A stretch of 64,000 bases of DNA from a virus (lineage: Duplodnaviria; Caudoviricetes): the IMG/VR virus record IMGVR_UViG_2974727065_000001, positions 1-64,000 of that record; one strand, 5' to 3'. Of this stretch, positions 8,088-36,268 are shown in pieces. Numbering within the stretch: position 1 is the first letter of the stretch; the number at the start of each line of letters is the position of its first letter. The position numbers were made by a program, and so were the translations under genes. The notes under the pieces were generated by a model. It worked only from the letters and a program-made list of their open reading frames with translations. It did not search any database and had not been told where the DNA came from.

Positions 8088-8647
8088 TGAAAGGCAATGC
8101 AAGCGAAATCCTTAGCATCCTTGCTCAAGATAACGTAGGGTTCTTCTCTCTGGTGGAACTAAACTGGAACCAGAACTACTACTTCACCGACTTTGGTGCT
8201 AACATCACTTGGAATGGTAAAACATTCCTTTCTAATAACCCGCTCGTCTCCTCTGACCCGATTAGGTATTCTAACGTGGTTGACAGGGAATCTTTCCGGT
8301 TCTTCCTTTCTGGTGTAGATGCAGCAATCAACAATGAACTTGATGCAGGTGTGGTTCACCGCCCTGTAACTCTTAGAATGGCCTTCACTGTCGATGGCGT
8401 ACCTCAACTTGGAGGTAATCAAACTCTTCTCTACTATGATGGTCTTGTCTCAAAGACGGACAAGAAAATCTCGTTGGATGACCGTATAAACGTCATTGAG
8501 TGTACTGCCCCGCTTTCCGATTTGGATGCGATTGGGACTATGTTCACCACTAAGGACGGTATGAAACGGTTCGATCCCACAGACACATCTTTTGATGCGA
8601 TCTTCGAGGGTAGTGAAGAAACAAGTCTGAAATGGGGTAAACTCTAA
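8087..8647 (+). CDS. tail tip/hub protein
   Basis: YFTDFGANITWNGKTF, YYDGLVS, DTSFD, C-terminal LKWGK. Confidence 0.65.
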   Translation: MKGNASEILSILAQDNVGFFSLVELNWNQNYYFTDFGANITWNGKTFLSNNPLVSSDPIRYSNVVDRESFRFFLSGVDAAINNELDAGVVHRPVTLRMAFTVDGVPQLGGNQTLLYYDGLVSKTDKKISLDDRINVIECTAPLSDLDAIGTMFTTKDGMKRFDPTDTSFDAIFEGSEETSLKWGKL

Positions 8648-16374: not shown

Positions 16375-16392
16375 CAAAGGAGAAACTAAACA

Positions 16393-16800
16393 ATGCAAGT
16401 CAAATACCTTCAGCTTGATGCTCAAGGTTTTCTGGTGACGGGAGTGGGCTTCGGCCCCTCCCTACCGGAGAATGCTATCATGGTAATTGAAGGTGTAAAC
16501 CTCGAAGACATCCCAGAAAACTACTACTTTCAGGATGGTATGCTTCACAAGGCACCTCTCTCACCTTCCCCTGAAGAGACCGAAGATGGTTATATCATCC
16601 GTGGACTTATCGCAGGGACATCTATCAACGTAATCGATAACGCAGACGGTTCATCGATTGTCTCCGTAACTACAACCGAAGAGCAGACAGAACTTGAGTT
16701 CGCTCTCGAAGACGAAGGATCTTATACCGTGGAGGTGGATCTTCCTGAACCGTCTCGTATGTCCTCCACTGTAATTGAGGTCTCAAATGCTGAGGATTAA
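16393..16800 (+). CDS. tail fibre-associated protein
   Basis: AAGGAG RBS; directly after fibre gene. Confidence 0.5.
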   Translation: MQVKYLQLDAQGFLVTGVGFGPSLPENAIMVIEGVNLEDIPENYYFQDGMLHKAPLSPSPEETEDGYIIRGLIAGTSINVIDNADGSSIVSVTTTEEQTELEFALEDEGSYTVEVDLPEPSRMSSTVIEVSNAED

Positions 16801-17212
16801 ACGTACTGAGGAAGCTAAACAGGCTCCTCTCAAGAAAGTCAAAACAGAAGCTGTTTGTCGTGTGAACTGTGTAGCTGACGAAGTTCGTCGTCTCTATATT
16901 ACTCCGATCGCAGGGCAAGAGCTTATTTACATGAAGAAAGAGGAAGAAGCTAAAGCGTTCCTCGCTATAGAAACTGAACCTGAAGATCTTTCTGAATTCC
17001 CTTTCATTGGAAGCGAGATTGGTTCTACTGGAATGTCTCCGAGAGAAGTTGCAGAGGTATTCTATGAGCGTTCCCAAGCTTGGAAGTATATCGGGGTTAT
17101 GATCGAGAGGTTGCGGGTTAATGCCCTTTCTGGGATTAAAACTGCTTCCTCGGAAGAAGAAGTGAATCAGCTTGTTGAATTCTATGAAGAAGATATGGAG
17201 GAACTGCGATGA
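16787..17212 (+). CDS. tail fibre assembly-like protein
   Basis: YITPIAGQELIYMKKEEEA...FPFIGSEIG...IERLR pattern of fibre-associated chaperones. Confidence 0.55.
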   Translation: MLRIKRTEEAKQAPLKKVKTEAVCRVNCVADEVRRLYITPIAGQELIYMKKEEEAKAFLAIETEPEDLSEFPFIGSEIGSTGMSPREVAEVFYERSQAWKYIGVMIERLRVNALSGIKTASSEEEVNQLVEFYEEDMEELR

Positions 17213-17715
17213 AATTCAGTTACCACCCTCTCAAAGATCTCCGTCATCGTTTCCGAGAATTGATAGAAATCACTGGTGGTCGTGATCCTGTTGAATACCG
17301 TACAAGACTCCGTCAGATGATGCAGATGGGTCTACACCTGTGGATCGCTGAAGACAATTACCGAATTGTTGGATCTATCGGTTTCATGACTGAACCCGGT
17401 GAAACAGGCTGGACCAAGAGTGAAGCAATGAAAGAGGCCGCAATCGAGAAAGGTATCGACCCTGATACTGTTCAGGTACGCTCCTTGATTTATGTACATC
17501 CTGACTACCGTGGGAAAGGTCTGGCAGATGAACTTGAGAAACGAGCAAACCGTACATCCTTGGAACTAGGTTTCAAATACCGGGCTGCTTTTGCTTACGA
17601 TAATGAAGAGATTTATAAATGGATTCACCGTCACGGGAATGCTATTGATCTTCTTCCTGAAGAACCAACAGGTACGGGTTTTCCGGCCACTCTTGTCCCT
17701 TTGGATAACGTATGA
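17209..17715 (+). CDS. GNAT-family acetyltransferase
   Basis: Acetyl-CoA motif A IYVHPDYRGKGLADEL. Confidence 0.75.
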   Translation: MKFSYHPLKDLRHRFRELIEITGGRDPVEYRTRLRQMMQMGLHLWIAEDNYRIVGSIGFMTEPGETGWTKSEAMKEAAIEKGIDPDTVQVRSLIYVHPDYRGKGLADELEKRANRTSLELGFKYRAAFAYDNEEIYKWIHRHGNAIDLLPEEPTGTGFPATLVPLDNV

Positions 17716-17725
17716 GGTAATGTCA

Positions 17726-18079
17726 ATGTCTCACTTTACAGAACTAAAACACTGGTACTGGCAAGGTCGTAACAAACAGTATATCACAACAAAAGAAGTG
17801 AAGTGGGAAATAGGTGTAGAAGGTTCTAGCCTATGGGTGACAGTACCGAAGGGTTTCAACTTCGATGTATCTGTCCCAAAAGCTCTCACTTGGCTGGTAG
17901 ATCCTCACAACCCGAAGTATTTCAAAGCAGCCTGTCTACACGACTATGCACTACATGAATTGAATTGGGATAGAGTTTCGGCTGCTGCACTCTTCTCAGA
18001 GGCTCTTAGAGCAGAAAAACTTAACTCGGTTCTCCGATTACTGATGGTTTACGCAGTGATTGGATGGAACTGGAAATAG
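17726..18079 (+). CDS. DUF1353 family protein
   Basis: VTVPKGFNFDVSVP...AACLHDYAL...ALFSEAL. Confidence 0.75.
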   Translation: MSHFTELKHWYWQGRNKQYITTKEVKWEIGVEGSSLWVTVPKGFNFDVSVPKALTWLVDPHNPKYFKAACLHDYALHELNWDRVSAAALFSEALRAEKLNSVLRLLMVYAVIGWNWK

Positions 18080-18094
18080 CGAAAGGAGGCCATT

Positions 18095-18619
18095 ATGGCT
18101 GCTAAACGTAAAACTAAATCGAAATCGAAACTTGAGAGCCATGATACGGGCTTTCGTTTGGGTAACCGTTCAGTTCGTAACCTGAAAGGTGTCCACCCTG
18201 ATCTGATCAAGGTCGTTGAGCTGGCCCTGACCCGTTACACTAAGGAAGACTTCACTGTGATCTGTGGTATGCGTACCCGGAAAGAGCAGCGTCGTCTGGT
18301 GGCCAAAGGTGCTTCTAAAACTATGAACAGTCGTCACCTCCCGAATAGCCAAGGTTACAGCCGCGCTGTTGATCTCGGTTGGTGGAAGAACGGCGGAGTC
18401 TCTTGGAAGACCGACAATGTGAAAGCCTTCTATGATATGGACCACTCTGCGGACTATGAAGGTTATCAGGCTATCGGTGTTGCTATGAAGGCTGCTGCTG
18501 AAGAACTGAACATTCCTCTTCGTTGGGGTGCCGACTGGGATGGTGACGGTCAACATACTGACCATACCTTCCTTGACTGGGTTCACTTTGAACTCCCAAG
18601 AGGTCATGGTTATGACTGA
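18095..18619 (+). CDS. endolysin, M15-family (L-Ala-D-Glu) peptidase
   Basis: LKGVHPDL, GMRT..EQ, SKTMNSRHL, AVDL, RWGADW, DWVHFEL. Confidence 0.9.
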   Translation: MAAKRKTKSKSKLESHDTGFRLGNRSVRNLKGVHPDLIKVVELALTRYTKEDFTVICGMRTRKEQRRLVAKGASKTMNSRHLPNSQGYSRAVDLGWWKNGGVSWKTDNVKAFYDMDHSADYEGYQAIGVAMKAAAEELNIPLRWGADWDGDGQHTDHTFLDWVHFELPRGHGYD

Positions 18620-18806
18620 GAACAAGAAACCTCGCACCAAGACCTATAAACGGGAGTTTGCAGTAAGCACCTTCCTTGGTTGTCTCGGTTGGGGTATGTT
18701 CTCTGGCGATGCAACCTTCCTTGAAACGACTTTTATGCCGACCCTGTTTAACGCAGGAGTAGCTTTGGGTCTTCACGAATACTCGGAGAATATGGCAAAC
18801 AGATGA
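18612..18806 (+). CDS. probable holin
   Basis: 64 aa, KTYKREFAV then two hydrophobic segments; between endolysin and spanin. Confidence 0.55.
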   Translation: MTENKKPRTKTYKREFAVSTFLGCLGWGMFSGDATFLETTFMPTLFNAGVALGLHEYSENMANR

Positions 18807-19186
18807 AGAACATTATTTTCCTAGTTCTTGTCGGGACAATCCTTGTGGGTTGTTCCGGCATGGACATCGCTAAGTTTGCTTTAGGCGGCGGCGCAGATAT
18901 CATCCCTGACGTAGCTCAGGTTGGTAAAACAAACACACAAACCCTTGGTACAAATGAAATCACCGAGGTTGTAATCAAAGACGTTACAGGTGGTCAGATC
19001 CGTCCGGTCGTTCGACCTGAAGGTATCACTACAACAGCACCAGTAGAGAACGTCACCCAGACTAACTACAACGTTCCTCCGATCTGGATCATTGCTTTGG
19101 TGGTGTGGAGTATCTTCCTCTGGCAGCTTCCGAGTCCAAGTGAGCTAAGTCGGAAGTTCTGGTCGTTCTTTGGAAAACGTAAGTAA
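18803..19186 (+). CDS. probable unimolecular spanin (lipoprotein with C-terminal TM)
   Basis: Lipobox ILVGC after hydrophobic signal; C-terminal IWIIALVVWSIFLW followed by basic tail. Confidence 0.65.
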   Translation: MKNIIFLVLVGTILVGCSGMDIAKFALGGGADIIPDVAQVGKTNTQTLGTNEITEVVIKDVTGGQIRPVVRPEGITTTAPVENVTQTNYNVPPIWIIALVVWSIFLWQLPSPSELSRKFWSFFGKRK

Positions 19187-19201
19187 AACAAGCACATATA
19201 G

Positions 19202-19347
19202 ATAGGGTGCGTTAAATAAGGGAACCCCCTTGAATAATAGGGTGCGTTAAAGAAGGGAACCCTCCCTTTCCCGAAATTCCACCCTTTCTATGCTCATCTT
19301 TCTTGATGAAAAAGAACAGAAAACAATAGGTGACGTTAAAGAGGGGG
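19202..19347 (+). promoter_or_regulatory. cluster of three phage RNAP promoters (19202, 19237, 19326) ahead of portal
   Basis: ATAGGGTGCGTTAAATAAGGG; ATAGGGTGCGTTAAAGAAGGG; ATAGGTGACGTTAAAGAGGGGG. Confidence 0.85.
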
Positions 19348-19381
19348 CTGACTCGTAACCCTCTATCAGAAGGAGAAATCG

Positions 19382-20995
19382 ATGTCAGAACAGAATATTT
19401 CCGTAGCTGCTGTAAAGAAAAGTGTAGCTACTCCTTCTCATGAGTATGAATCCATGAGAGACGTTTGGGCGAAGTGTCGAGCGATCATTCGAGGTCAAGA
19501 GTCTGTTAAAGCTCATGATGCGATAGTGAATGATTATGATGAGAACGGTAACAACCGTAATCTACTGCTCCCCTTCAGTCCTTCCATGACTCAAGCTCAG
19601 TATGACTTCTATAAGGATGAAGCTGAACTTCCCGGTATTACTTCTCAGTATGCTAAATCAATGATTGGTGCTCTTCTCCGTAAGGACGCTGATATTGAGC
19701 TTCCTGAAGAACTTCCTGAAACACAACGAGAGGAAATCACTGAATGGCTTCGATCGAAGTTCACTTCAGATAACCGTTCTCTCTTCCACTTCCTAGACAA
19801 TGCTCTTTGGGAGGAAATGCAAACCTCTTCTGCGTGGGTTTATGTTGATGTACCTGATGTCGATGAAGATATCATTGATCAGCTAACACCAGAACAGAAA
19901 GAGCTTATCAAACCCTATCCTACCTTGCTTAGTGGTGAGAGTGTGATTAACGTGATTCACGGTATTCATCCTGTAACGAAGGTTCCTTCTATGGTTCGTT
20001 TCGTAACACGGCAACTCAAACCTCACTTCACAAGTGATAACCCTTGGCATCCTAAACTGGTAGACACTGTACGTGATCACTATTTGGATGAAACAGGATT
20101 GCTTGTCGTTGACGAGTGGGTATTGGATAACAGCGGAACTCAAGCTTCTTCCGAAAACGGTAAGATCCGTCATGGTGAACTTGAACCTGAAGCCGCTGGT
20201 AAGGATGCACCTCAGTTTGAGAAGAAACAGTCTTACTTCCCGGAGAAATTCGGCAAACGACTTACACAAATCCCTGCTTGGCCTCTTGATGGAGAATCTT
20301 TCATTGAGGAGCCTATCTTGCTTACCTTCGTCAATCGCGAGGTTGGCCTTTACAATAAGGTATCTCGTCGTAACCACTTGATGTATGGTGCTGCAACCTA
20401 CACACCTATCATCATTGGTGATACTGATGAAGAAGCTCAAGCAAAGATCCTTTCCTCTGGTCTTGGTTCTATCTGGTTCCTTGAAGCTAACACTACTGTT
20501 GATACTCTGGCTCCGCCTACTGAATCCCTTACAGACATGCAGAATGCTATCTCCGCTACAATGGATGAACTTGCACGTATGGGTATTCGTATGCTGGCCC
20601 CGGATACCGCAGAATCAGGTGTTGCTCTTGAACTTCGTAATGCTGGTCAGACTGCCTCTCTAGGTACTCTGAACCAGAAGATTTCAACCACAATGCGACA
20701 AGTGTTCGCCTTCATGATCAACTGGCGTTATGATATGGAACTCACAAGTGAAGATATCAAATTCACTATGTCGAGTGACTTTAGCCCACAAGCTCAAGGT
20801 GAAGCGGGTATGCGTCTTGTTGGGGAGTGGTATCAGATGGGTCTTATCCCTCGTTCTGTCTTCCTTGACATGGCGAAGAAGAATGACTATATCCCGTCTG
20901 AGTATGATGATAATGAAGGTCAAGAAGAAATGGAGAAAGATCCAGTTCAGATGGCTAATGCTCAAGCAGAGCAGGATGTGACAATCCAAGAATAA
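19382..20995 (+). CDS. portal protein (DUF4055-like)
   Basis: 537 aa; WAKCRAIIRGQESVK, WVYVD, MARMGIRML-like, ESGVAL; first gene of head module. Confidence 0.85.
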   Translation: MSEQNISVAAVKKSVATPSHEYESMRDVWAKCRAIIRGQESVKAHDAIVNDYDENGNNRNLLLPFSPSMTQAQYDFYKDEAELPGITSQYAKSMIGALLRKDADIELPEELPETQREEITEWLRSKFTSDNRSLFHFLDNALWEEMQTSSAWVYVDVPDVDEDIIDQLTPEQKELIKPYPTLLSGESVINVIHGIHPVTKVPSMVRFVTRQLKPHFTSDNPWHPKLVDTVRDHYLDETGLLVVDEWVLDNSGTQASSENGKIRHGELEPEAAGKDAPQFEKKQSYFPEKFGKRLTQIPAWPLDGESFIEEPILLTFVNREVGLYNKVSRRNHLMYGAATYTPIIIGDTDEEAQAKILSSGLGSIWFLEANTTVDTLAPPTESLTDMQNAISATMDELARMGIRMLAPDTAESGVALELRNAGQTASLGTLNQKISTTMRQVFAFMINWRYDMELTSEDIKFTMSSDFSPQAQGEAGMRLVGEWYQMGLIPRSVFLDMAKKNDYIPSEYDDNEGQEEMEKDPVQMANAQAEQDVTIQE

Positions 20996-21062
20996 ACCTA
21001 CCGGCGTCTAGGTAAAGCCCCGTAAAACGACCTCAAGATGAGGTTGGGGCAGACGCCTCTTT

Positions 21063-21138
21063 TCCCCTGTAGTTCAGTTGGTAGAACACCGGACTGTTAA
21101 TCCGTATGTCGCTGGTTCGAGTCCAGCCGGGGGAGCCA
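21063..21138 (+). tRNA. tRNA-Asn(GTT)
   Basis: Canonical cloverleaf TCCCCTG...CGGGGGA-G-CCA, anticodon loop CTGTTAA, GGTTCGAGTCC T-arm. Confidence 0.95.
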
Positions 21139-21142
21139 ACTA

Positions 21143-21216
21143 TGCGCGGTAGTGTCAAGTAACACGGTAGGTTCATTACCTACAACTGGTGGTGTCAAGT
21201 CCACCCGGCGCAACCA
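21143..21216 (+). tRNA. tRNA with CAT anticodon (Met or Ile2), atypical
   Basis: TGCGCGG/CGGCGCA acceptor (one G.G), GTAGG/CCTAC anticodon stem with TTCATTA loop, GGTGG/CCACC T-stem, encoded CCA. Confidence 0.7.
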
Positions 21217-21241
21217 ACTAACCAATCAGGAGATTGCTAGA

Positions 21242-24200
21242 ATGGACATCAATCAGAAGATTTTTGATCAGATCGTTGATCATATGGGTGATGTACGTCT
21301 CTTTGAGGAGAGCGTTCAAATCGGCAATCGCCGTATCATCCGTCGCCATAGAGAGCGCCTACGAGACCTTCTCCGTAGAGACCTCAAAGAACGAACACGT
21401 TCTAATGAACCTCTGCGTCGAGAACAATCACGTTTCGCTACAGAGCTTTTCTCATGGCAGAAAACAAACCTTATGGAATTGAGCACCGCTGAAATTGACT
21501 TTATCAGTGATGCGATCTATAAGCAAACAAGAGATTTTTACCGTACACGGAAGCCTTCCACAAGGGAACTCCTTGCTGAGATTACAGGTCCGGGTATGGT
21601 GGGTGAGAAATCACTCAAAGGGAACATCAGAAACATTTCTTCTGGTGAACTCATACGTATTCAAACAAAGGTAAAGGCAGGTCTCGCTGCTGGTGCTAAG
21701 CCTGATCAGATCATTCAGGAAGTCATGAAGACTACCAAGATCACTCAGCATCAAGCAGCCACACTCACGAGAACTTCAATCACCAGCACCCAAAGGGAAG
21801 CTGTAATGTCGGTCATGGAGAACAATGATTCTCTGATCAAAGGTTACATGTTCTCCGCTATCCTTGATAGCCGGACTTCTGGTATTTGCCGTTATCACAA
21901 TGGTAAGATGTATCCTATCTCCGAGAAACGCTACAGGCCACCACTCCACTTCAACTGTCGTTCTACGATGGTTCCTGTTCTCAAAAGCAAGTCTGAATTG
22001 GCTGCTTCTAAGTCTACTCGGATCAACAAAGATGCTCTTGCAAAGAAACAACCCCAAAGCCTTTCCGGTAAAGCTCCACCTAAAGAATCCTTTGGTGAAT
22101 GGCTGAAGCGTCAAGTTTTTGATGTCCAAGTGAAGATGCTTGGAAGTGAAACTAAAGCGAACCTCTTCCGAGAAGGTAAGTTGAAGGCTGAACAGTTCAT
22201 CAATGCTGCAGGGGATGCACTATCGATTACTGCTCTCCGCCGTAGGGCTGCCCTCGCTACAGAGGTATTCACGCCACGTCAGAAGATGCGTTCTGTTGAT
22301 GTTGATATCCGGGTGTCTCGTCCGAGTACTCTGGTCAACAATCCTAAGTTCCGCACTGAGGTAAGAAACCTGTATGTACTCGACTCTGATGACTGGAACA
22401 AGACTTTCGCTCTGACTGACTTCAAAGGTACAACCCTTCAAGGTAAGCAAACGGCTCGTCGGCGTGTTGGTAATCAATTCGATGAGAGTAACCACAGCTT
22501 TGATCCCTTGACTGGTGAAGCGAAGAATAACAACCTCTATGATCCCAACTTCCAGTTGTATCAGGAGCGTCTTGACTTCATGCGTAACTCCAAGATCCTT
22601 CGTCCAGAGCACAAAGGTTTCATCCAAAGCGTATCAGATAGTCTTGAAGATAAGGTGTCGGTGAACCAACAGACAGTTGTCGTTGAGAACCTCCGTGTTG
22701 TCCTTGAACGTGCTATCAAAGATGGTAAGCCTTGGGAAGACTTTGCTTCTGTACTCCGGGCTGAGAACCGTTTTGCAGTTCAGAACGTCTCACGTCTTCT
22801 GGACACTCGCCAAAGGAAACGTAACAATCTGTTCGCTCGTTTCTTCGGTTCTAAGGACAAACCTGAGATCCAGATCATGGGTAAGTACTACACCTTGGAC
22901 CAGTTGAACGCTGATATCTTGAAAGACCAGAGAGAGATTGACTCTTTCCGTCGCAAGTATGGAACCAAACTCGCGGCTGATCTTTACCTCAAAGGTAAGG
23001 CTCCTGCTCGTGCCTACTTCCACGGTCTTGCAGGGAAGTTCCCAACCAAGAAGAAGATCAAGAAACGTCTTCTGGAAATGGTTCCTTTCAAGAAAGAGTA
23101 TGACGCTTACGTCAAGAAACGTGGTGAACCTAAAGATGAATGGTGGATCCGTCAAGCTGCTAAGTTCAATGAAGCCTATCGAAATATCATTGATGCTGAG
23201 TGGGCAACTCTGAGTAAGAAACCTTCAACAGCACTGCTGGATGATAAGGTGATCAACTCTCTGTCTAAGTCTGTCAAGCTTGTGGCTTCTGGTCAGATGA
23301 CTGACTATGATGGTCTCGCTATTGCTATCGGTAAACAGATGGCGAAAGACTTCGAAGACATCCTTCCTTTCACAAAGCATACGCTTCAGAGCTACCACAA
23401 AGAAGGCTCTCGTATCCTTGATTACATGGTAAAGCGACGTCTGATCCGAACTAATTTCCGTGGTAAAACCCGCCGTGGTGTCTATGATGTGGACACTGGT
23501 AGAGCCTCTGGCTCGTGGGGTGATACTGTATCCCGTGAGGTTGAGATTCTTGATAAAGACATGTTGAAGCTACAAGAAGCAGAACGCCGTGTGACTATCG
23601 CTCGTCGTCTCGGTGTAGTGAATCCTCGTGATCGTCTTTACGTCCGTGCTAACAAGAAAACCTACGTTGACTCTCGTGGTAACGACACTGGTATTCCGAT
23701 TATCTCCCGTAGTAAAGCCGCGAGCTATGATCCGAAACAGATCGACCATGAAATAGCTAACATGATGAACCATGCAATGAACGTCGAGTATGAGGTTGAT
23801 AATCAGTTTGTTGACTTCATGGATAGTGTTGTTCGCTTCCGTGACCCTCGTGGTAATGCGAAGTACTATGACTCTATCAACGAGTTCCGTCATGACATCC
23901 TGAAACGTGGTGATGCTGGTTATGGTCTTATGACTACAGCTAAGTGGCACGCTCAAAGAGGTAAGCCCTTCAAGACCTATGTGTACATTGACTCTCGTGG
24001 TCGTGTATATCATCGTGGTTACTTGACACCTACTGGTGGTGAAATGGTCCGTCCTTTCTTGAACGACTCGAAAGCTACTCCTATGAATTTCCGCGCTCTG
24101 GAAGAGTTGAGACTTCAAACAGGTGCCTTGATCGGTCCCGGTACAGAGGCTCTGACTCACCAAGGTCGTATGGAGATCTTCAAAAGGCATAAGAAACAAA

Positions 24201-25633
24201 TACTTGAACTCGGTGAAATCCTACTGCAAACTACTCAGAGAGATCGTCGCATCCGTGAGTTCCTTGAGCATCCGCTAATCCGTAGTACGGAGGGTGTAGA
24301 GGTTCCTAAGATGGCCCGTCTCGCTATGGAGTATGCGCGTATTCATCGACACACAAAAGGTGACATCAACAATGATCGTCTCCTGAAAACTTACAAAACC
24401 AAACTGATGGTAGAGAACGATGCTTCGGCATCTGGTGCTCAGATTATCGGACTCTCAACAAGGGACCGTGATATCTCCTTCGCATCCAATGTTGTTCCTA
24501 CCCCTCAGAAGAACCGTCTGTATGACCTCGTTGCTATGGACACTATTGATGACCCTGAGTTTAGAAAGATCCCGGCTCTTCGTGATGCTGGATTGACTTG
24601 GGAAGACCTTGCTAAAGGCGCTAAGGCGGCTAACATGGTTACATTCTATGGTGCTGGTGCTGCAACTCAGGCTGCAAACGTAACAAACAAAATGGTGAAA
24701 GTCCTTCAAGGAAAGGGATTTATCACTGTGACCAAAGATGAGCTTACGAACCAACTTCGTATCATCGACGGTAAAATCAAGGTGGCTGATCGTATCGGTG
24801 CCTCGGTGACTGTTGATGAGCTACGAGCATTCCGTTCAGAACTCATTGATATGGTCAATAACCAACAAAGCACTGGAATCAAACTCCTGAAAGAAGCTGA
24901 AGACATTCACCCTGATACTGCTGAATTCGTTAGAAAACTAACTGATCGCCGTAAGGGTCTTGTCGGGCCGAAGGACTTTGAACGAGTTGCTGAGATTATG
25001 GCTAAGAACCTGAATGCCCGTGCTCCTGTTACGGGAAAGTTCATTCAGTTCTGGAAGAAGGTCGCGAAAACGTATGTGAATGACTCTCAAAGCGTAGATA
25101 TCCCGTGGGTAACGTTTGATGGGAAAACCATGATGCAGCGTTATCGTCCTCAACTCCAACAGAGGATCGATTTTACTGATCCTGTTTCTGGCCGAAAGAT
25201 TATGAACATTTATCAAGCGGAAGCCGAAGACGGTAAACTACTTGGTAAGGGTTCGGTTGCAGACGCCTCGATTGGTCTTGGTGTTAACGGCAACCACTCC
25301 AACGATGCCGTGATCGTTCGAAGGTTCCACTTGTGGGGCCGGAAGGAAGGTATCTCTACTGGAACCATCCACGATGCTTTCTTTACAAACGTCGCGGAAG
25401 CTGATCGTGCTGTTTATAAACTGCGAGAGATTTACGCAGATGCTATGGAGAGCAACACGATTGCAAATACCCTGAAGGCTATGCGTAAGCATGGTATGTC
25501 AGAAAAGAACTACAGAGCATTGCTCCGTGAGGCGAAGGAACTCGGTCTGATCAACCCTGCTAATCCTGTGCGCCGTGAGGAAGTGCTCGCCCCGATCCCG
25601 GAAGGTCAAACCTACTATGGGATTGGTCCGTAA
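21242..25633 (+). CDS. MuF (Phage_Mu_F) minor head domain fused to a T7-family single-subunit RNA polymerase; putative virion RNAP (1463 aa)
   Basis: AGGAG RBS at 21228. MuF: YMFSAILDSRTSGICRYHNG...PPLHFNCRS. RNAP: YIDSRGRVY, motif A ENDASASGAQ, motif B KAANMVTFYG, NGNHSNDA, motif C TIHDAFFT. Confidence 0.88.
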   Translation: MDINQKIFDQIVDHMGDVRLFEESVQIGNRRIIRRHRERLRDLLRRDLKERTRSNEPLRREQSRFATELFSWQKTNLMELSTAEIDFISDAIYKQTRDFYRTRKPSTRELLAEITGPGMVGEKSLKGNIRNISSGELIRIQTKVKAGLAAGAKPDQIIQEVMKTTKITQHQAATLTRTSITSTQREAVMSVMENNDSLIKGYMFSAILDSRTSGICRYHNGKMYPISEKRYRPPLHFNCRSTMVPVLKSKSELAASKSTRINKDALAKKQPQSLSGKAPPKESFGEWLKRQVFDVQVKMLGSETKANLFREGKLKAEQFINAAGDALSITALRRRAALATEVFTPRQKMRSVDVDIRVSRPSTLVNNPKFRTEVRNLYVLDSDDWNKTFALTDFKGTTLQGKQTARRRVGNQFDESNHSFDPLTGEAKNNNLYDPNFQLYQERLDFMRNSKILRPEHKGFIQSVSDSLEDKVSVNQQTVVVENLRVVLERAIKDGKPWEDFASVLRAENRFAVQNVSRLLDTRQRKRNNLFARFFGSKDKPEIQIMGKYYTLDQLNADILKDQREIDSFRRKYGTKLAADLYLKGKAPARAYFHGLAGKFPTKKKIKKRLLEMVPFKKEYDAYVKKRGEPKDEWWIRQAAKFNEAYRNIIDAEWATLSKKPSTALLDDKVINSLSKSVKLVASGQMTDYDGLAIAIGKQMAKDFEDILPFTKHTLQSYHKEGSRILDYMVKRRLIRTNFRGKTRRGVYDVDTGRASGSWGDTVSREVEILDKDMLKLQEAERRVTIARRLGVVNPRDRLYVRANKKTYVDSRGNDTGIPIISRSKAASYDPKQIDHEIANMMNHAMNVEYEVDNQFVDFMDSVVRFRDPRGNAKYYDSINEFRHDILKRGDAGYGLMTTAKWHAQRGKPFKTYVYIDSRGRVYHRGYLTPTGGEMVRPFLNDSKATPMNFRALEELRLQTGALIGPGTEALTHQGRMEIFKRHKKQILELGEILLQTTQRDRRIREFLEHPLIRSTEGVEVPKMARLAMEYARIHRHTKGDINNDRLLKTYKTKLMVENDASASGAQIIGLSTRDRDISFASNVVPTPQKNRLYDLVAMDTIDDPEFRKIPALRDAGLTWEDLAKGAKAANMVTFYGAGAATQAANVTNKMVKVLQGKGFITVTKDELTNQLRIIDGKIKVADRIGASVTVDELRAFRSELIDMVNNQQSTGIKLLKEAEDIHPDTAEFVRKLTDRRKGLVGPKDFERVAEIMAKNLNARAPVTGKFIQFWKKVAKTYVNDSQSVDIPWVTFDGKTMMQRYRPQLQQRIDFTDPVSGRKIMNIYQAEAEDGKLLGKGSVADASIGLGVNGNHSNDAVIVRRFHLWGRKEGISTGTIHDAFFTNVAEADRAVYKLREIYADAMESNTIANTLKAMRKHGMSEKNYRALLREAKELGLINPANPVRREEVLAPIPEGQTYYGIGP

Positions 25634-25710
25634 TAACCTGAAGCTGGCTGTCTGTGATGGTCATGCAATTTAAACTTTCGTAAGTTGTACTTACAAGGAG
25701 AAACTATACA

Positions 25711-26457
25711 ATGGCAAAAACTGCTGAAGAACTCGAAGCTGAACTGGAACGTCTGCGCAAGCAACTCGCTGGAGAGGAGTCCAATGAAAACGGTGAAACA
25801 AGCGAAGAAGAAACCAATGAGGACGAAACCGAAAACGAAGACAACGGTGAAGCCAACGAGGAAACCAACGAAGAGACCGAAAACAAGCAACTGACCGAAG
25901 AAGAAATCAAGGTCGCTGCTCTGAAAGAGTCCCTGAACAAACTGGACAAGAAACTCAAGGAAGAAGCCAAAGCTCGCGCTGCTGCTGAGAAGAAACTCAA
26001 AGATGCTGAGATTGAGCGTCTGCGTAGCGAAGGTAAAGAGGCGGAAGCTCTCAAAGCTCAAATGGAGCAGCTGGAAGCTGAGCTTGCTGTATTCCGTGAT
26101 GAAAACACTGCTCTGAAACGTGACCGCGTTCTGGACGATGCTTTGTCTGGTGTTGAATTCCGTAATGACCGTAGCCGTGCTATGGCTCGTCGGGAGATCG
26201 TTGAAAATCTCACTCAAGATGAGAATGGTAGCTGGGTATCGAAAGATGGATCCTCGATCGATGACTATGTTACCGCCTATACTGAGTTGGAAGATAATAG
26301 CTTCCTGTTCAAGCAAAAGACTAACCGTGGTTCGCAATCGCAACCCGGATCAACCCCTAATACGGGTGATGAGACACCCAAATCTATTCTTGATGTTCCG
26401 CAAGATCAATTTATGAAACAAATCGAAAAGAAACTGCGGTCTCAAGGACTCCGATAA
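25711..26457 (+). CDS. capsid scaffolding protein
   Basis: Acidic N-terminus, long coiled coil, SFLFK motif; directly before capsid gene. Confidence 0.8.
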   Translation: MAKTAEELEAELERLRKQLAGEESNENGETSEEETNEDETENEDNGEANEETNEETENKQLTEEEIKVAALKESLNKLDKKLKEEAKARAAAEKKLKDAEIERLRSEGKEAEALKAQMEQLEAELAVFRDENTALKRDRVLDDALSGVEFRNDRSRAMARREIVENLTQDENGSWVSKDGSSIDDYVTAYTELEDNSFLFKQKTNRGSQSQPGSTPNTGDETPKSILDVPQDQFMKQIEKKLRSQGLR

Positions 26458-26472
26458 GAAGGAAAATAAACA

Positions 26473-27594
26473 ATGACTATCTCTACTTCCCAATTTCAGG
26501 TAATCGAAGAAGTCGTGCGCCAGTACGCGCATGAAGCCTACACCAACTCGAAGAAACTGGTCGGCACTGGTATCGTGGGTCAGCGTTCCGACGTTGATGG
26601 CGATGTTGAATCGTACATCGGTCAGTTCCGCTGGTACAAACCCCTGAACCCGACCGTTAACGTTGCCTCGGCTACCGATGCGACTGACGGTACCCTGACC
26701 GACATCAGCACCGACAAAGCCAAGTACGTGAAGACTGTCCGTACCTTCGGTGGTGAACAGGTGAACGTTGCTGAAGTGATCACCAAAGAAGATGGCCTGA
26801 AGAAACTGGCTCGCGATCTGGCCCAAGTCCAAATGGACGACCAAGGCGAAGCTCTGATGGCTGTTCTGAAGGGTGTCGCTGCTACCGAAGTTGAAGCAGG
26901 TAATGCTGCTGGCGGTGGTAACGGTGGTATCGTTGACTTCGACACTGACGCTGATGCTGCTAACACTGGTATGTTCGTTGACATCAACGCTGACTCGCCC
27001 GTGTTCGGTTCCGCTGCAACTGGTGCTAACGACGCCCGTAAACTGTTCGACTCGAACGGTATCGGTGCTGCTCGTGGTGAGCGTCTGTTCCAAGCTCTGG
27101 GTATGGGCTTCAAGGACCATGAACCGAACTTCATGTATATGGCTGCTTCTCCGCAGACTATTGCTGAACTCCGTGCTGCTAACCTCGTGGACGAAACGAA
27201 GGTGACTGACGGTGAACTCGAATTCACCACTGTCTTTGATGGTAAGTTCCGTCTCCTGCCGACCCGTCAAGGTCAGATGGCTGGTGGTCTCACCGCTGGC
27301 AACCTGAACGCTCAGTCCACCAAATGTACCTTCATTATGAAGCCGAATGCTGTGTCGTTTGCTCCGGTTCAGGCTCCGATGCCTGTTGAACTGGATCGGA
27401 ATGCTGCTGCTTACCGTGGTTCGGGTAAAACCCAACTGTGGTACCGCTGGGGCTTCGTGTTCCACCCCGAAGGTTACACTTGGGCAGGTAGCGAGAACGA
27501 GTTCGCAACCAACGCTGCTTATGGTGCTGCTGCTTCGTGGACCCGTAAAGTGTCGGCTCTGAACCTGCCGATCCTGCCGATCTTCCACGCGTAA
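26473..27594 (+). CDS. major capsid protein
   Basis: 373 aa, strongly biased codon usage; VELDRNAAAYRGSG..QLWYRWGFVFHPEGYTW. Confidence 0.85.
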   Translation: MTISTSQFQVIEEVVRQYAHEAYTNSKKLVGTGIVGQRSDVDGDVESYIGQFRWYKPLNPTVNVASATDATDGTLTDISTDKAKYVKTVRTFGGEQVNVAEVITKEDGLKKLARDLAQVQMDDQGEALMAVLKGVAATEVEAGNAAGGGNGGIVDFDTDADAANTGMFVDINADSPVFGSAATGANDARKLFDSNGIGAARGERLFQALGMGFKDHEPNFMYMAASPQTIAELRAANLVDETKVTDGELEFTTVFDGKFRLLPTRQGQMAGGLTAGNLNAQSTKCTFIMKPNAVSFAPVQAPMPVELDRNAAAYRGSGKTQLWYRWGFVFHPEGYTWAGSENEFATNAAYGAAASWTRKVSALNLPILPIFHA

Positions 27595-27612
27595 TAGAAG
27601 GAGAAAGAGCTA

Positions 27613-28122
27613 ATGGCACTAACTGTAGGAACAAACAGCTATGTAACCGTCGCTGAGGCAGATGCCTACTTCGGTGATCGGCTCAATGCCGACAGCTGGA
27701 CTTCTGCAAGTGTCGCTATCAAAGAACAAGCACTGGTTACGGCCACTCGCTTCGTTGATGAGCGGTCTTGGATTGGTCAGGCTGTTAGCTCTTCCCAGAA
27801 ACTAGGGTGGCCCCGCAATGGGGCTACCTACCTCGACCCTAAACTTGGGGTTCAAATTTCCGTACCTAATGATGAAGTCCCTGAAAGGGTCAAATCTGCT
27901 GTGTTCGAGCAGGCACTCCATTTCATCAATAATGGTGCAGTTCTCGGTAGTTCATCGAATGTCTATGAGTCTATTACGGTAGGCTCTATCTCTCTAACTG
28001 ATGCAAACTCAAAGTCTAAAGTTTCCAAAACAGCTTCCTCAGTTATTTCCTTGGTCGGTCCTCTGGTCCGCTTTGGTTCTAACGGCTCTGGTGGGGGTAA
28101 CACTTGGTGGAGGGCTTGGTAA
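27613..28122 (+). CDS. head-tail connector (DnaT-like family)
   Basis: TNSYVTVAEADAYF, ALVTATRFVD, QKLGWPR, VPERVKSA. Confidence 0.8.
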   Translation: MALTVGTNSYVTVAEADAYFGDRLNADSWTSASVAIKEQALVTATRFVDERSWIGQAVSSSQKLGWPRNGATYLDPKLGVQISVPNDEVPERVKSAVFEQALHFINNGAVLGSSSNVYESITVGSISLTDANSKSKVSKTASSVISLVGPLVRFGSNGSGGGNTWWRAW

Positions 28123-28461
28123 ATGAGTTTGAGGAAAACACTGAACGACGCTGTAGATCAAGCTTTCCTAGCTTGTGGTGATCTTGTCCGAAGTGTGACT
28201 CTCAATGCTGAAGATGTAACTGGTTTTGATAATGCAACACAAACCGTTATCAGTACACCACAAACTGTTACAGCAGATGCTATCCTTCTGAAACGCTTCA
28301 TTAATGGAGAAGGTCAGATTGAGGCGCATTTTATCTTTAAAGCAAGAGAAGTTCCCCTGAACAAGTACATCGATCTCGTTGTTGGTTCTGAGACCTTCCG
28401 CATCGTCAGCTTTGACTCGAATGAGTTCTCGGTTGATGTTATCGCTAAGAAGGAGAACTGA
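28123..28461 (+). CDS. head closure/head-tail joining protein
   Basis: Position and size. Confidence 0.55.
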   Translation: MSLRKTLNDAVDQAFLACGDLVRSVTLNAEDVTGFDNATQTVISTPQTVTADAILLKRFINGEGQIEAHFIFKAREVPLNKYIDLVVGSETFRIVSFDSNEFSVDVIAKKEN

Positions 28462-28463
28462 TA

Positions 28464-28859
28464 GTGGCAAACAAGTTTGAGAAAGTAGTCTCTGATATTG
28501 GTGAAGTCCTTGGTGGCATTGCTAGTGTAGAGATCTATCCTGATGACTATCAAGGTAACATTCAAAATGAGACCCGCTTTGTTCGGTACTCTATTCTTTT
28601 CGGTGTCTCAGATGATCTGGATCATCAACGAGCGACAGAGCTTTCTGGCTATCTCGTGATGCGAATTTTCTCTGAGAAGGGCTACGCAGGAAAGACAGGG
28701 TACAGTATCGCAGGTGATCTTGATGACGCACTTGAAGGTAAGAAACTCCAAAGAGGTACAACTCTGGGAAAATCCACTCTAACACAACCTATGGAAGATG
28801 AAGGTAATAGCACTTTGATTATGATGCAGTACCTCCTTCCTTTCACGCTATTTACGTAG
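28464..28859 (+). CDS. tail terminator-like protein
   Basis: Position before tail tube; FVRYSIL, GYLVMRIF. Confidence 0.55.
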   Translation: MANKFEKVVSDIGEVLGGIASVEIYPDDYQGNIQNETRFVRYSILFGVSDDLDHQRATELSGYLVMRIFSEKGYAGKTGYSIAGDLDDALEGKKLQRGTTLGKSTLTQPMEDEGNSTLIMMQYLLPFTLFT

Positions 28860-28871
28860 GAGAATCACACA

Positions 28872-29396
28872 ATGGCACATATTTCCACTCTCGACTCTGG
28901 GGTATTCTCGTACCTCGACATCTTTAAAGGCAACATTTCCGCACTCCCTGCTGCTCCGGCTGCTGGTGACTTTGCGGCTCTGTTCAACGGTGGCGCGGCT
29001 GATACAGTCCGTATGCCTTCGGTTCGGGAATTCCCCGCAATCGGTAACGCTGCTAACATCACCAACGTTCCTGTCTTCGGTCAGAAACAGAGTTCTCAGG
29101 TGTCCGGTCAGGCTGATGCCCCGACTATGGACGTTACTGTCAACTACGTTCCTTCCGAAATGGAAGAGATCGAAAACCTGAAGAAGCAACGTGTGGCATT
29201 CCGCTTCATGATGGCTCGTGAAGAGGTCACTGTTGCCGAAGGTGCTGGTGCAACTCTGTCCAAAGAGAACACCGAGTTCTACTTTGTTGGTGTTATCGAA
29301 GCTGTTCAGGTTACTCCGTCGCTGACGGATGCTAACACTGCGGTGGTTAACATCTCGATCAAGGGTGACTTTGTTGGCCCTGCAACTATCGCCTAA
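28872..29396 (+). CDS. major tail (tube) protein
   Basis: VREFPAIG, QVSGQADAPTMDVTVNYVP. Confidence 0.8.
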   Translation: MAHISTLDSGVFSYLDIFKGNISALPAAPAAGDFAALFNGGAADTVRMPSVREFPAIGNAANITNVPVFGQKQSSQVSGQADAPTMDVTVNYVPSEMEEIENLKKQRVAFRFMMAREEVTVAEGAGATLSKENTEFYFVGVIEAVQVTPSLTDANTAVVNISIKGDFVGPATIA

Positions 29397-29417
29397 TAGG
29401 TTACGTTAAAGAGGGGG
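29396..29417 (+). promoter_or_regulatory. phage RNAP promoter (SP6-like class)
   Basis: ATAGGTTACGTTAAAGAGGGGG overlapping the tail tube stop. Confidence 0.85.
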
Positions 29418-29452
29418 AGTCCTTCGGGGTTCCTCCTCCCTATGAGGTATAC

Positions 29453-29683
29453 ATGAAAAAGAACATGAAATTCAGTAAGGCATTCGTGATGGATGCTACC
29501 TTGACCCACTCTCTCCGAGCGATTGAGATTAGCCGTAAGAAGGTTTATGCTCGTCTGAGTGAGCTTGAAGGGTCAAATGATCCTGCAACCGCAGGTGAAG
29601 TATTAGAAACACTTTCTATCCTTGAGGGATGGAAGCGAACACTTGAGAAATGGCGCGATGATAATCCGCAGCTGTTCAAATAA
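29453..29683 (+). CDS. hypothetical helical protein
   Basis: GAGGT RBS, 76 aa. Confidence 0.55.
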   Translation: MKKNMKFSKAFVMDATLTHSLRAIEISRKKVYARLSELEGSNDPATAGEVLETLSILEGWKRTLEKWRDDNPQLFK

Positions 29684-29695
29684 GGAGAAATAAGA

Positions 29696-30019
29696 ATGAA
29701 AAATCTGGTTGGTAAGCGAGTCGAGAAATCGGTAGACTTCGTTGGTGATCAAGTTGTGATCCGTAAGCTTTCGGTATCGGAAGTAATGGAAGTCCAGAAA
29801 CTCGTTGCTGAACACGGTGGTGTCAAAGAAGGTGATGATCCTTCGAACCCGATGGCACTGGTCCGTGGCGTTATCCGCCTTGGTGTCAATGGTGCTGATG
29901 AACTCACTGATGAGGACTTCGACACATTCCCGATTGACGAACTGAACACTCTCGTTTCTGCTGTTCTTGCCTTCTCCGGTATTGGAGAGGAAGCAGCAAA
30001 GGAAGCTGAGGGAAACTAA
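29696..30019 (+). CDS. tail assembly chaperone (G-like)
   Basis: VVIRKLSVSEV...EL..LV..VL; ends EGN* on slippery site. Confidence 0.8.
   Translation: MKNLVGKRVEKSVDFVGDQVVIRKLSVSEVMEVQKLVAEHGGVKEGDDPSNPMALVRGVIRLGVNGADELTDEDFDTFPIDELNTLVSAVLAFSGIGEEAAKEAEGN
30010..30016 (+). other. -1 programmed ribosomal frameshift site GGGAAAC
   Basis: X XXY YYZ heptamer just before the stop; -1 frame open to 30402. Confidence 0.8.
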
Positions 30020-30402
30020 CCGACGATGAGTTAGCTATCTACGATCTGGCTATGATGCTAGGGATTCCTGTTTACCAGATCGTAGATGAAATGCCCTATT
30101 CAGAACTGCAAGGATGGTTCAAGTATTTGAAAGTACGTCCTTACGGCTGGAGAGAAGACTACCGAGCGTGGTCCATCATGTCCAGTGTTAGTATGAATGG
30201 TGGTAAGCAGAAACCCGAAGAAGTATTTGATAGCTTGAAAGCTGTCTTCAATCACCAACGTTCTAAGAAACTTAAACTCGCTGAAGGTGCAGTCCCGCAA
30301 GGGGTATTCCTTCAGAAGATCCTCACCGCGAAGGGTGGTGATGGTCATGACTTCGCAAAAGTTATGTCTGATGCCATAGGAGGTGAAAAGAAAGATGTTT
30401 AA
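30010..30402 (+). CDS. tail assembly chaperone frameshift extension (GT-like)
   Basis: GKLTDDELAIYDLAMMLGIPV...MPYSELQGWFKY..RPYGWRED. Confidence 0.75.
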   Translation, partial: GKLTDDELAIYDLAMMLGIPVYQIVDEMPYSELQGWFKYLKVRPYGWREDYRAWSIMSSVSMNGGKQKPEEVFDSLKAVFNHQRSKKLKLAEGAVPQGVFLQKILTAKGGDGHDFAKVMSDAIGGEKKDV

Positions 30403-30703
30403 CGTAAGTTTGGATGTTGTTGACTTCCACAAGGAAATCAGGGCTGCTGCTGAAGAAGCCGAACTCATCGCTGAAGAAGATGTACAAGGTCGTATTGATC
30501 TTGCTGTAGATCTCTTGAGAAAAGTTACACCTGTTGATACAGGTTACGCACGTAGTCGTTGGAAAGTGAAACGATATCTGCTCGTTCCCGGAGGAGAGAT
30601 CACCAACGATGCTGACTATATCTTGAGACTAAACCAAGGGCATAGCCAACAGGCTCCTAAGTTCTTCATTGAACAGGCGCTTATTGCTGCTCGAATAATC
30701 TGA
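30395..30703 (+). CDS. HK97 gp10-like tail completion/neck protein
   Basis: TPVDTGYARSRW, NDADYILRLNQGHSQQAP. Confidence 0.75.
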   Translation: MFNVSLDVVDFHKEIRAAAEEAELIAEEDVQGRIDLAVDLLRKVTPVDTGYARSRWKVKRYLLVPGGEITNDADYILRLNQGHSQQAPKFFIEQALIAARII

Positions 30704-30707
30704 ATCC

Positions 30708-30751
30708 GCCCAAGATGGCCCCACTAACCGGGACTGTCTTGGGCATTTTTT
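30708..30751 (+). terminator. intrinsic terminator before tape measure gene
   Basis: GCCCAAGATGG...CTGTCTTGGGC then ATTTTTT. Confidence 0.7.
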
Positions 30752-30767
30752 ATAAAGGAGAAACCGT

Positions 30768-35744: not shown

Positions 35745-35773
35745 GGTCATCCCTTCGGGGGTGGCCCTTTTTT
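35745..35773 (+). terminator. intrinsic terminator ending the late region
   Basis: GGTCATCCC-TTCG-GGGGTGGCC then CTTTTTT. Confidence 0.85.
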
Positions 35774-35789
35774 ACCAAAAACGCACCCA

Positions 35790-35821
35790 AAAAAGTGAGA
35801 AAACTAAGGCATCTATAATGA
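35790..35821 (+). promoter_or_regulatory. early promoter-like 32-bp repeat, copy 1
   Basis: AAAAAGTGAGAAAACTAAGGCATCTATAATGA, identical to 36237-36268. Confidence 0.75.
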
Positions 35822-35843: not shown

Positions 35844-36245
35844 ATGAACTTCGCAATTCGTCACCCTCAAATCCAGAACCTCATTGACCTTGCAATGGCT
35901 TACGGTGCCGGAGACAAGAAGATCCTCGAACTCCAACTGGACATTGTTCGTCGATCTTGTATGATGGAGTGTGAACCCCATGCAAACCTGATTGTACTTC
36001 CGGGCTGTGAACTCGGTTACATGGAAGGTATTCCGGGCGTCCTTCAGAAGTATCGGGAGAACATCCGGTATGCTGATGCAGTTGTTCTGGACCAAGGGGA
36101 TCTGTGGTACGTCATCAAAGATCGTTTTGCTGGACGCCACGGGCCTATCTCGGACGACTACTTCCGTCGTCTTTTTGTACGAGAGTGTAACAACGCTCTG
36201 CGCCAACGTCAAGAACTTTGGAGGGAAAAGACCCAGAAAAAGTGA
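35844..36245 (+). CDS. first early hypothetical protein
   Basis: AAGGAAG RBS before ATG 35844. Confidence 0.6.
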   Translation: MNFAIRHPQIQNLIDLAMAYGAGDKKILELQLDIVRRSCMMECEPHANLIVLPGCELGYMEGIPGVLQKYRENIRYADAVVLDQGDLWYVIKDRFAGRHGPISDDYFRRLFVRECNNALRQRQELWREKTQKK

Positions 36246-36268
36246 GAAAACTAAGGCATCTATAATGA
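36237..36268 (+). promoter_or_regulatory. early promoter-like 32-bp repeat, copy 2
   Basis: Identical to 35790-35821. Confidence 0.75.

Follow-up and report, generated by a model that had tools for sequence, protein, structure and literature searches.

A conserved fusion of a MuF head protein to a T7-family RNA polymerase, a candidate virion RNA polymerase of siphophages

Introduction

RNA polymerases (RNAPs) delivered with the virion are known from few phage lineages (N4-like, crAss-like, phiKZ/AR9-like and P23-45), each of which gave new polymerase and ejection biology. Here we describe a gene, referred to as MuF-RNAP, in which a MuF-type head protein is joined to a T7-family single-subunit RNAP, making its product a candidate virion RNAP. 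The gene was found in positions 1–64000 of a 75,087-bp virus record (IMG/VR IMGVR_UViG_2974727065_000001); this 64,000-nt stretch is called the window throughout.

The virion RNAP (vRNAP) of phage N4 (Schitoviridae), gp50, is described as a podovirus protein of about 3500 amino acids (aa) in which N- and C-terminal domains of its own serve ejection and encapsidation (PMC13434306, PMC4496689). MuF-RNAP resembles gp50 in that a T7-family single-subunit polymerase is encoded among late or virion genes, and a second T7-like RNAP is encoded for the next stage of transcription. The predicted logic is also the same: a packaged enzyme would transcribe the early genes and these would provide the second RNAP. 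An initial annotation of the window, made from the sequence alone, had set the protein apart from the giant N4 enzyme, and size, architecture and sequence do all differ. MuF-RNAP has 1463 aa and a MuF N-terminus, and its phage is described as a siphovirus (PMC8323127).

The other virion RNAPs, those of P23-45 (fused to the tape measure), the crAss-like phages and phiKZ/AR9, appear to follow the same strategy of a virion polymerase for the first genes, with a non-virion RNAP taking over afterwards. These enzymes are of the two-barrel (multisubunit) type, whereas MuF-RNAP is of the right-hand T7 type, and its carrier is MuF rather than a tape measure or separate subunits. AR9 is described as a phage with deoxyuridine (dU) in its DNA that has both a virion and a non-virion RNAP (PMC5449584). 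With the T7 and SP6 RNAPs (Autographiviridae), the fused enzyme shares the fold and the order of catalytic motifs. Unlike them, it is preceded by about 500 aa that belong to the head protein and linker, and is predicted to be expressed late rather than early.

The MuF family has its own delivery biology. In phage SPP1, the portal is reported to target a few copies of gp7 to the procapsid interior, where gp7 aids the start of infection (PMC6316719), and MuF–toxin fusions are thought to share this route (PMC6316719, PMC5512222). MuF-RNAP has in common with SPP1 gp7, Mu F and the MuF toxins the N-terminal family, the slot beside the portal and a C-terminal cargo carried on MuF. Its cargo, however, would be a polymerase for the phage's own DNA, not a toxin accompanied by an immunity gene. 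The locus does not have the make-up of a MuF polymorphic toxin, as the C-terminus is an RNAP and a scaffold gene lies downstream. MuF toxins belong to temperate phages, whereas the phage of the window is described as lytic (PMC8323127). In the accessible parts of their survey of MuF fusions and virion RNAPs, Iyer et al. (2017) place N4-like virion RNAP modules in N4-like (pro)phages only and list no MuF-RNAP architecture (PMC5512222).

Results

The MuF-RNAP gene is a single open reading frame (ORF) of 1463 aa on the + strand, from an ATG at 21242 to a stop at 25633, with AGGAG 9–10 nt 5′ of the ATG. A longer GTG start at 21152 lies 14 nt after a tRNA-Asn gene (21063–21138) and is unlikely. Positions 15000–35000 of the window share 97.9% identity with Bacteriophage DSS3_PM1 (MN602267; Naomviridae, Noahvirus), whose DSS3PM1_00060, annotated as 'minor head protein-like protein' only, is 99.5% identical to the MuF-RNAP protein. 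The Naomviridae are described as lytic roseophages of siphovirus morphotype that infect Ruegeria pomeroyi DSS-3, with dT replaced fully by dU in their DNA (PMC8323127).

The N-terminal part, aa 1–340 (21242–22261, + strand), was identified by Pfam and PHROG as a MuF / SPP1-gp7-like head-morphogenesis module. PHROG 241 ('head morphogenesis') matched aa 3–340 (E = 2.4e-53). The Pfam Phage_Mu_F core (PF04233) covered aa 140–243 (21659–21970, +; E = 1.8e-13, 51.7 bits against a cut-off of 29.6), and the signature SAILDSRTS...PPLHFNCRS occurs at aa 205–241. An AlphaFold2 model of aa 1–560 (predicted local distance difference test score, pLDDT, 86.9) showed a long helical bundle and a small beta domain. 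Foldseek comparison of this model with the PDB gave no match at E ≤ 0.001, the top hit being a designed helical bundle (E = 0.27).

The C-terminal part is a T7-family single-subunit RNAP module, as found by profile search against the PDB and by Foldseek, with approximate boundaries 22922–25630 (+). Pfam RNA_pol (PF00940) matched aa 1049–1422 (E = 2.4e-6, 27.1 bits against a cut-off of 22), so that both Pfam families proposed in the initial annotation score above their cut-offs; phrog_414 ('RNA polymerase') matched aa 914–1154 (E = 4.9e-25). The catalytic motifs occur on the + strand as IDSRGRVY (aa 916–923, 23987–24010, including R921), motif A with D1060 (24419–24421), motif B with K1128-x7-Y1136 G1137 (24623–24652), HSND (aa 1352–1355, with H1352 and D1355) and motif C, IHDAFF, with H1377-D1378 (25370–25375; D1378 at 25373–25375). 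All of these, like the MuF signature, had been picked out initially, and each was recovered at its position.

A family profile built from 57 relatives was compared with the PDB. It matched T7 RNAP chains (E = 5.1e-25) in three significant colinear blocks, while a fourth stretch, in the N-terminal domain, was insignificant. Mitochondrial RNAPs followed (1e-18 to 5e-14), then subunits of N4 RNAPII (6dt7_B, 1.9e-6; 6dt7_A, 0.0067); no N4 mini-vRNAP chain was found at E ≤ 0.01. In the profile alignment D1060 corresponds to D537 of T7 RNAP, K1128, Y1136 and G1137 to K631, Y639 and G640, H1352-S-N-D1355 to H784-S-Q-D787, and H1377-D1378 to H811-D812. The two catalytic Asp residues claimed at the outset, D1060 and D1378, thus align with T7 D537 and D812.

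An AlphaFold2 model of aa 300–1463, made from 57 aligned sequences, had a mean pLDDT of 82.3 and a predicted template modelling score (pTM) of 0.75. The best PDB match found by Foldseek was again T7 RNAP (E = 6.4e-21, target-normalised template modelling score 0.51–0.59), and mitochondrial RNAPs were also matched. The alignment with T7 RNAP extended over about 1000 columns, against chains of 830–860 residues, at 12–15% sequence identity. Among structures in BFVD, T7-like phage RNAPs matched at about 1e-20 and N4-like vRNAP segments at about 1e-12 to 1e-10; the latter are structural matches to the fused enzyme but rank under the T7-like ones. The fused enzyme is thus closer to T7 and mitochondrial RNAPs than to N4 vRNAP.

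Because the model aligns to almost the whole of T7 RNAP, the polymerase fold begins well before the DSRGRVY motif; it is a right-hand fold that includes a T7-type N-terminal domain. The initial annotation had left about 650 aa between the two modules as unknown sequence. This holds for roughly aa 340 to 450–560, to which the model would shrink the stretch without assignment; the remainder is part of the T7 RNAP fold in the AlphaFold model. The middle region as delimited here (aa about 341–560, 22262–22921, +) contains conserved blocks in 55–57 relatives. No Pfam family was found in it, nor any PDB match at E ≤ 0.001 despite the confident model. It may serve as a linker, as an extension of the polymerase at its N-terminus, or as both.

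Residue conservation was assessed in a 40-row E-INS-i alignment that included canonical RNAPs. R921 and D1060 were identical in 40/40 rows, and K1128, Y1136, D1355 and D1378 in 39/40, the exception being a truncated entry. Motif B (Rx3Kx7YG) keeps K1128, Y1136, which aligns with the ribose-selecting Tyr of T7 (Y639), and G1137, all of them conserved. Its Arg, R627 in T7 RNAP, is replaced by Ala (A1124), as had been noticed initially; next to it, K1125 is shared by at least 90% of 25 diverse relatives. This replacement, and the low Pfam RNA_pol score of 27.1 bits, could be taken to mean that the polymerase module is a catalytically dead relic serving as structural or DNA-binding cargo. Such a relic is very improbable. 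Both metal-binding Asp residues, the motif-B Lys and Tyr and the His and Asp of HSxD are conserved down to 21–25% identity, and the whole T7 fold appears to be kept in the model. The module is a complete, divergent, T7-family single-subunit RNAP and, judged from these residues, is very likely to be catalytically active.

Relatives were sought to establish whether the fusion is genuine. A cluster search with aa 850–1463 returned 435 clusters at E ≤ 1e-3. The best 120 of these, drawn from several repositories, were nearly all 1400–1600 aa long with PF04233, and most also had PF00940; five were shorter (817–1180 aa) and had PF00940 only. An exhaustive HMMER scan of aa 400–1463 against 1.84 billion representatives gave 144 hits at E ≤ 1e-3, 62 of them at E ≤ 1e-30, and in full-length matches the query region begins after about 400 N-terminal residues. 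Of 25 diverse representatives examined at E ≤ 0.001, MuF was found in 24 and RNA_pol in 19. The single representative lacking MuF, P0259, is an unrelated peptidase/MORN protein with neither MuF nor RNAP, a spurious weak match. A parallel to an N4-like metallopeptidase was therefore dropped, as the Peptidase_M10 and MORN matches belong to P0259. Relatives of 1821–2073 aa had no domains besides MuF and RNA_pol at E ≤ 0.001; among the representatives, alignment A1 contained single weak matches to NTP_transf_2 (7e-5) and GNAT (2.9e-4). IMG/VR held 561 confirmed relatives with the MuF pattern. Among the 80 loci kept, 48 had an ATG-started full-length ORF of 1350–1650 aa.

Two of 50,697 phage records matched over most of the length: DSS3_PM1, which was sequenced independently and has the same uninterrupted ORF, and the metagenomic EBPR siphovirus 1 (JF412302). 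In the latter (11896–17269) an HNH endonuclease gene divides the homologue into gp47 and gp49, at a site between the DxRGR motif and motif A. A group-I-intron-like RNA was found at the split (15026–15252; E = 1.6e-8 and 40.5 bits in Rfam, under its gathering score of 50), which points to a mobile intron rather than two separate genes.

A tree of the polymerase core placed 26 fused proteins and two short entries, P0131 and P0139, in one clade (Shimodaira–Hasegawa-like approximate likelihood ratio test, SH-aLRT, 99). The tree came from a quick search with midpoint rooting, has long branches, leaves out the truncated row P0160 and does not allow fusion events to be counted. The fused clade stands apart from canonical RNAPs, four of which, from the same genomes, group together at 100. 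The fused enzyme is therefore not a recent duplicate of the canonical one.

These data also bear on the concern, raised with the initial annotation, that an assembly or annotation artefact had joined two genes. A few shorter database entries (785–1180 aa) carry the RNAP part only, and the EBPR siphovirus 1 gene is in two pieces. Against this, the short P0131 and P0139 nest within the fused clade beside full-length proteins, and the EBPR split coincides with the intron-like RNA and HNH gene. The same ORF, moreover, recurs in DSS3_PM1 and in most of the best 120 clusters from several repositories, and the fusion in hundreds of independent metagenomic assemblies. An artefact is excluded for practical purposes.

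Two further proteins, P0223 (1264 aa) and P0232 (1307 aa), represent a second kind of MuF-RNAP fusion, with a polymerase much closer to canonical T7-like enzymes. They match Pfam RNA_pol at 1e-25, are only 21–22% identical to the MuF-RNAP of the window, and fall on the canonical side of the tree at an unresolved position. Such proteins may have come from a separate fusion event or from a basal lineage. A search for a cultured phage of this type found none: of 2181 matching phage records, 0 reach 80% coverage of the query. In public reads, seven runs contained small shares of the MuF-RNAP gene, the best being 0.20 in a run labelled metatranscriptomic. The contigs (42–562 nt) were of low depth and mostly 95–99% identical, none spanned the gene, and they are uninformative on expression or habitat.

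The gene lies in a head module with the order portal, tRNA-Asn, MuF-RNAP, scaffold, major head protein and head–tail adaptor; all genes of the phage are on one strand. The portal gene (19382–20995, +; phrog_145, E = 6.8e-46; Pfam DUF4055, 1e-9) adjoins MuF-RNAP, which starts at 21242. The scaffolding protein gene (25711–26457, +; phrog_206, E = 4.1e-7; Pfam Phage_scaffold, 4.9e-6, under its cut-off) and the major head protein gene (26473–27594, +; phrog_247, E = 1e-26) follow, with the adaptor gene (phrog_477, E = 1.2e-32) downstream. The phrog_145 and phrog_206 neighbours place the gene in the MuF slot between portal and scaffold, as first proposed. SPP1 is described as having a similar order, with gp7 after the portal (PMC6316719), and a portal-size ORF lies directly 5′ of the fused gene in 24/27 related loci with enough upstream flank. 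MuF-RNAP is the sole PF04233 match in the whole 75,087-bp record, and must therefore fill the MuF role.

The genome encodes a second polymerase, a canonical T7-like RNAP of 732 aa (42436–44634, +; Pfam RNA_pol, E = 8.5e-83; phrog_414, 2.6e-132), presumed to be non-virion. Its DSS3_PM1 counterpart is labelled 'RNA polymerase' in GenBank, and it shares about 20% identity with the fused enzyme over short stretches (E = 0.013). A canonical RNAP ORF of 735–766 aa was present in 5/5 long related records. An RNA_pol match in the fused ORF was present in 4/5, the fifth having its fused gene cut by the contig end.

Two classes of promoter-like element were found. With up to 3 mismatches allowed, the class II motif, TAGGnnnCGTTAAAG, matched at 14 sites, each of them on the + strand; 1.04 were expected, and 0/100 shuffles reached 14. 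We take the motif to be SP6-promoter-like; over-representation is the property that was tested. Copies lie 5′ of the terminase/tail region and of the head operon, at 29397 before the post-adaptor genes, and ahead of the genes past 45.9 kb for replication and nucleotide metabolism. The early block (35.8–45.9 kb) has no copy except an intragenic near-match at 38534. The copy TAGGTGACGTTAAAG (19327–19341, +), 41 nt 5′ of the portal gene and accompanied by others at about 19202 and 19238, is likely the promoter of the head operon, which includes MuF-RNAP. Relatives have variants of the motif, ...GGGGACGCTAAAGA in G002 and AATRGGGCGGAATAATGA in G005. Such genome-specific variants would be expected from co-evolution with the specificity loop of a T7-like enzyme.

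Class II sites on the + strand were recorded at 2243, 2334, 6581, 7409, 19238, 19327, 29397, 45927, 46394, 46552, 55099 and 59197. Downstream of them there is often GAGGGGGA together with a short hairpin, as in GGGGGAACCCC, which points to a conserved, structured 5′ leader of the middle and late transcripts.

The placement of MuF-RNAP in a head operon could also be read as a sign that the enzyme is not ejected at all. It would instead work in the producing cell, either tethered to the portal, where it would couple transcription with concatemer processing or packaging, or as a late-gene polymerase, while MuF served in ordinary head assembly. A role of T7 RNAP in concatemer processing and packaging is documented, and the MuF-RNAP gene is predicted to be expressed along with the late genes. 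In addition, SPP1 gp7 is reported to be dispensable for assembly, so that the slot tolerates additions (PMC6316719). However, the late genes already carry class II promoters, presumed to be those of the canonical RNAP, and motif families over the window included no further promoter class ahead of these genes. A procapsid-targeting domain would also sequester the enzyme from cytoplasmic DNA. We regard activity confined to the producing cell as improbable. An RNAP that is made with the head proteins only has no obvious job in the current cycle, and the whole setting (head operon, separate canonical RNAP, early block without class II copies) fits a virion RNAP.

The class I element is the candidate promoter for such an enzyme. 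A strong intrinsic terminator (35745–35766, +; 9-bp stem with 6 GC pairs and a T-run) ends the late (tail) operon, and a first class I copy, AAAAAGTGAGAAAACTAAGGCATCTATAATGA, stands after it at the start of the early block (35790–35821, +). The second copy (36237–36268, +) is identical over 32 nt. Searched as the two-block element AAAAGTGRGRAAA-N6-10-TCTATAA, class I gave 11 hits in 8/92 loci (1.19 Mb) and 0 in the reversed-sequence control. It is kept in relatives whose fused proteins are just 40–67% identical, and directly follows the late terminator in at least six records, namely the window's own genome, G002, G005, L003, L009 and L021. No obvious hairpin like that of N4 early promoters was seen in class I, though no folding was run on it. 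The fused enzyme may use class I as its promoter; on a T7-type reading, TATA would fall at −4 to −1 and an A-rich block near −17.

A third, partial class I copy, CACGCATCTATAATGA, was observed at 67790–67805 of the record, past the end of the window. It lies directly after a terminator-like hairpin and 12 nt 5′ of a 671-aa ORF, and is without the upstream AAAAGTGAG block. In L041, an IMG/VR locus at 44% identity, class I at about 11.9 kb is opposite in strand to MuF-RNAP and close behind it, which suggests a different module arrangement.

Class I may also be read by the host enzyme. MuF-RNAP would then still be packaged and ejected, but its main job would be that of a genome-entry motor or of primer synthesis for replication. 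Transcription accounts for part of the internalisation of the T7 and N4 genomes, and T7 RNAP also acts as a primer-making enzyme for replication. The one-strand gene layout would suit transcription-driven entry, and class I carries a perfect TATAAT. On the other hand, the conserved upstream AAAAGTGRG does not resemble the −35 hexamer of sigma-70 promoters, TATAAC in the G005 copy is without the critical last T, and the early block is not enriched in sigma-70-like sites (9 against 9.1 expected). Motor and expression roles are, besides, mutually compatible. That entry or priming is the main job, with host RNAP reading class I, seems unlikely to us, and early transcription by the fused enzyme remains our preferred reading.

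Elsewhere in the window, three further features were recorded. The tRNA-Asn (GTT) gene between the portal and MuF-RNAP genes (21063–21138, +; ARAGORN) is 89–93% identical to tRNA regions of Aeromonas jumbo phages, probably through tRNA conservation only. An ORF of 2575 aa (8647–16374, +), labelled 'host specificity protein J' in DSS3_PM1, contains more than 20 tandem copies of a 30-nt (10-aa) unit at 12751–14261, an fn3 domain and weak pentapeptide/antifreeze-like matches. Its product is probably a beta-helical fibre or central tail fibre. The large terminase occurs as two ORFs (4390–5385 and 5904–6410, +), the first of which matches phrog_2 terminase (1.2e-28); the terminase of one of two isolates is reported to contain a group I intron with a homing endonuclease (PMC8323127).

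Discussion

The data identify MuF-RNAP as a real and conserved fusion on the virion-RNAP theme that, by its sequence, is apparently active. We infer packaging, ejection, activity and the reading of class I by the polymerase. In the mechanism that we propose, MuF-RNAP would be made late from the head-operon class II promoter, along with the portal, scaffold and coat proteins. By analogy with SPP1 gp7, the MuF/gp7-like module would bind the portal and bring a few copies inside the procapsid. In the next infection the protein would exit the capsid together with the dU-containing DNA or before it. Its C-terminal polymerase would then transcribe the early block from class I, through to the canonical RNAP gene. 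The canonical RNAP would in turn read roughly 15 class II promoters, with transcripts starting at the G of CGTTAAAG, and so express the genes for replication, nucleotide metabolism and the virion, among them the head operon, from which the fused enzyme is remade. That MuF-RNAP is packaged in the virion is probable; towards the full chain, in which a capsid-packaged, ejected RNAP starts an N4-like polymerase relay, we lean with more reserve.

Several observations weigh against this relay. The perfect TATAAT of class I stands at the right distance from the upstream block, and the copies of G005 alone have TATAAC instead. A host sigma-70 RNAP could therefore read class I, much as T7 early promoters are read, and an injected enzyme would then not be needed. 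In motif B, A1124 stands in place of the Arg (T7 R627), with conservation at the adjacent Lys only. For portal binding by the MuF part, the support is its membership of a sequence family, and SPP1 gp7 is dispensable, so family membership does not guarantee ejection. A folded polymerase of about 165 kDa would have to cross the portal and a long tail tube, a passage known for N4 but for no MuF cargo so large. Finally, no virion proteomics, transcript mapping or biochemistry for MuF-RNAP was found in the literature searched.

The uracil genome is a possible reason for a virion RNAP, by comparison with AR9. To our knowledge, all other dU phages likewise have both virion and non-virion RNAPs. A wider reading, which we put forward tentatively and with some doubt, is that a globally distributed siphophage family, the dU-DNA Naomviridae included, runs a transcription programme that never needs host RNAP. 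The MuF-tethered enzyme would fire from AAAAGTGRGRAAA-N-TCTATAA on uracil DNA and be followed by the canonical RNAP with genome-specific promoters.

No description of a MuF protein fused to a T7-like RNAP was found by literature search, which reached open texts and not subscription-only papers or supplements, in line with the initial statement that no characterised example was known. The main texts on the Naomviridae (PMC8323127, PMC12697855, PMC12669031) do not contain 'RNA polymerase' or 'RNAP'. Literature pairing 'MuF' with 'RNAP', including PMC11806420, describes no MuF-RNAP fusion in the portions available.

If the proposed relay is correct, MuF-RNAP would be a third delivery route for virion polymerases: a compact T7-type enzyme on a portal-binding MuF module, in a long-tailed phage. 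The cargo of MuF would then include a polymerase of about 110 kDa that crosses the tail tube. The design is common in environmental data, where it occurs in hundreds of clusters. The window corresponds to a cultured and tractable representative, Noahvirus on Ruegeria pomeroyi DSS-3, which adds a link to uracil DNA. The enzyme could yield a new orthogonal polymerase and promoter pair, and may explain how a uracil-DNA siphophage is transcribed. On the wider reading, uracil-DNA phages would have converged twice on virion polymerases, of the two-barrel type in AR9/PBS and of the T7 type in Noahvirus, and MuF would be a general carrier by which enzymes acting for the phage genome, and not toxins alone, are delivered in the capsid.

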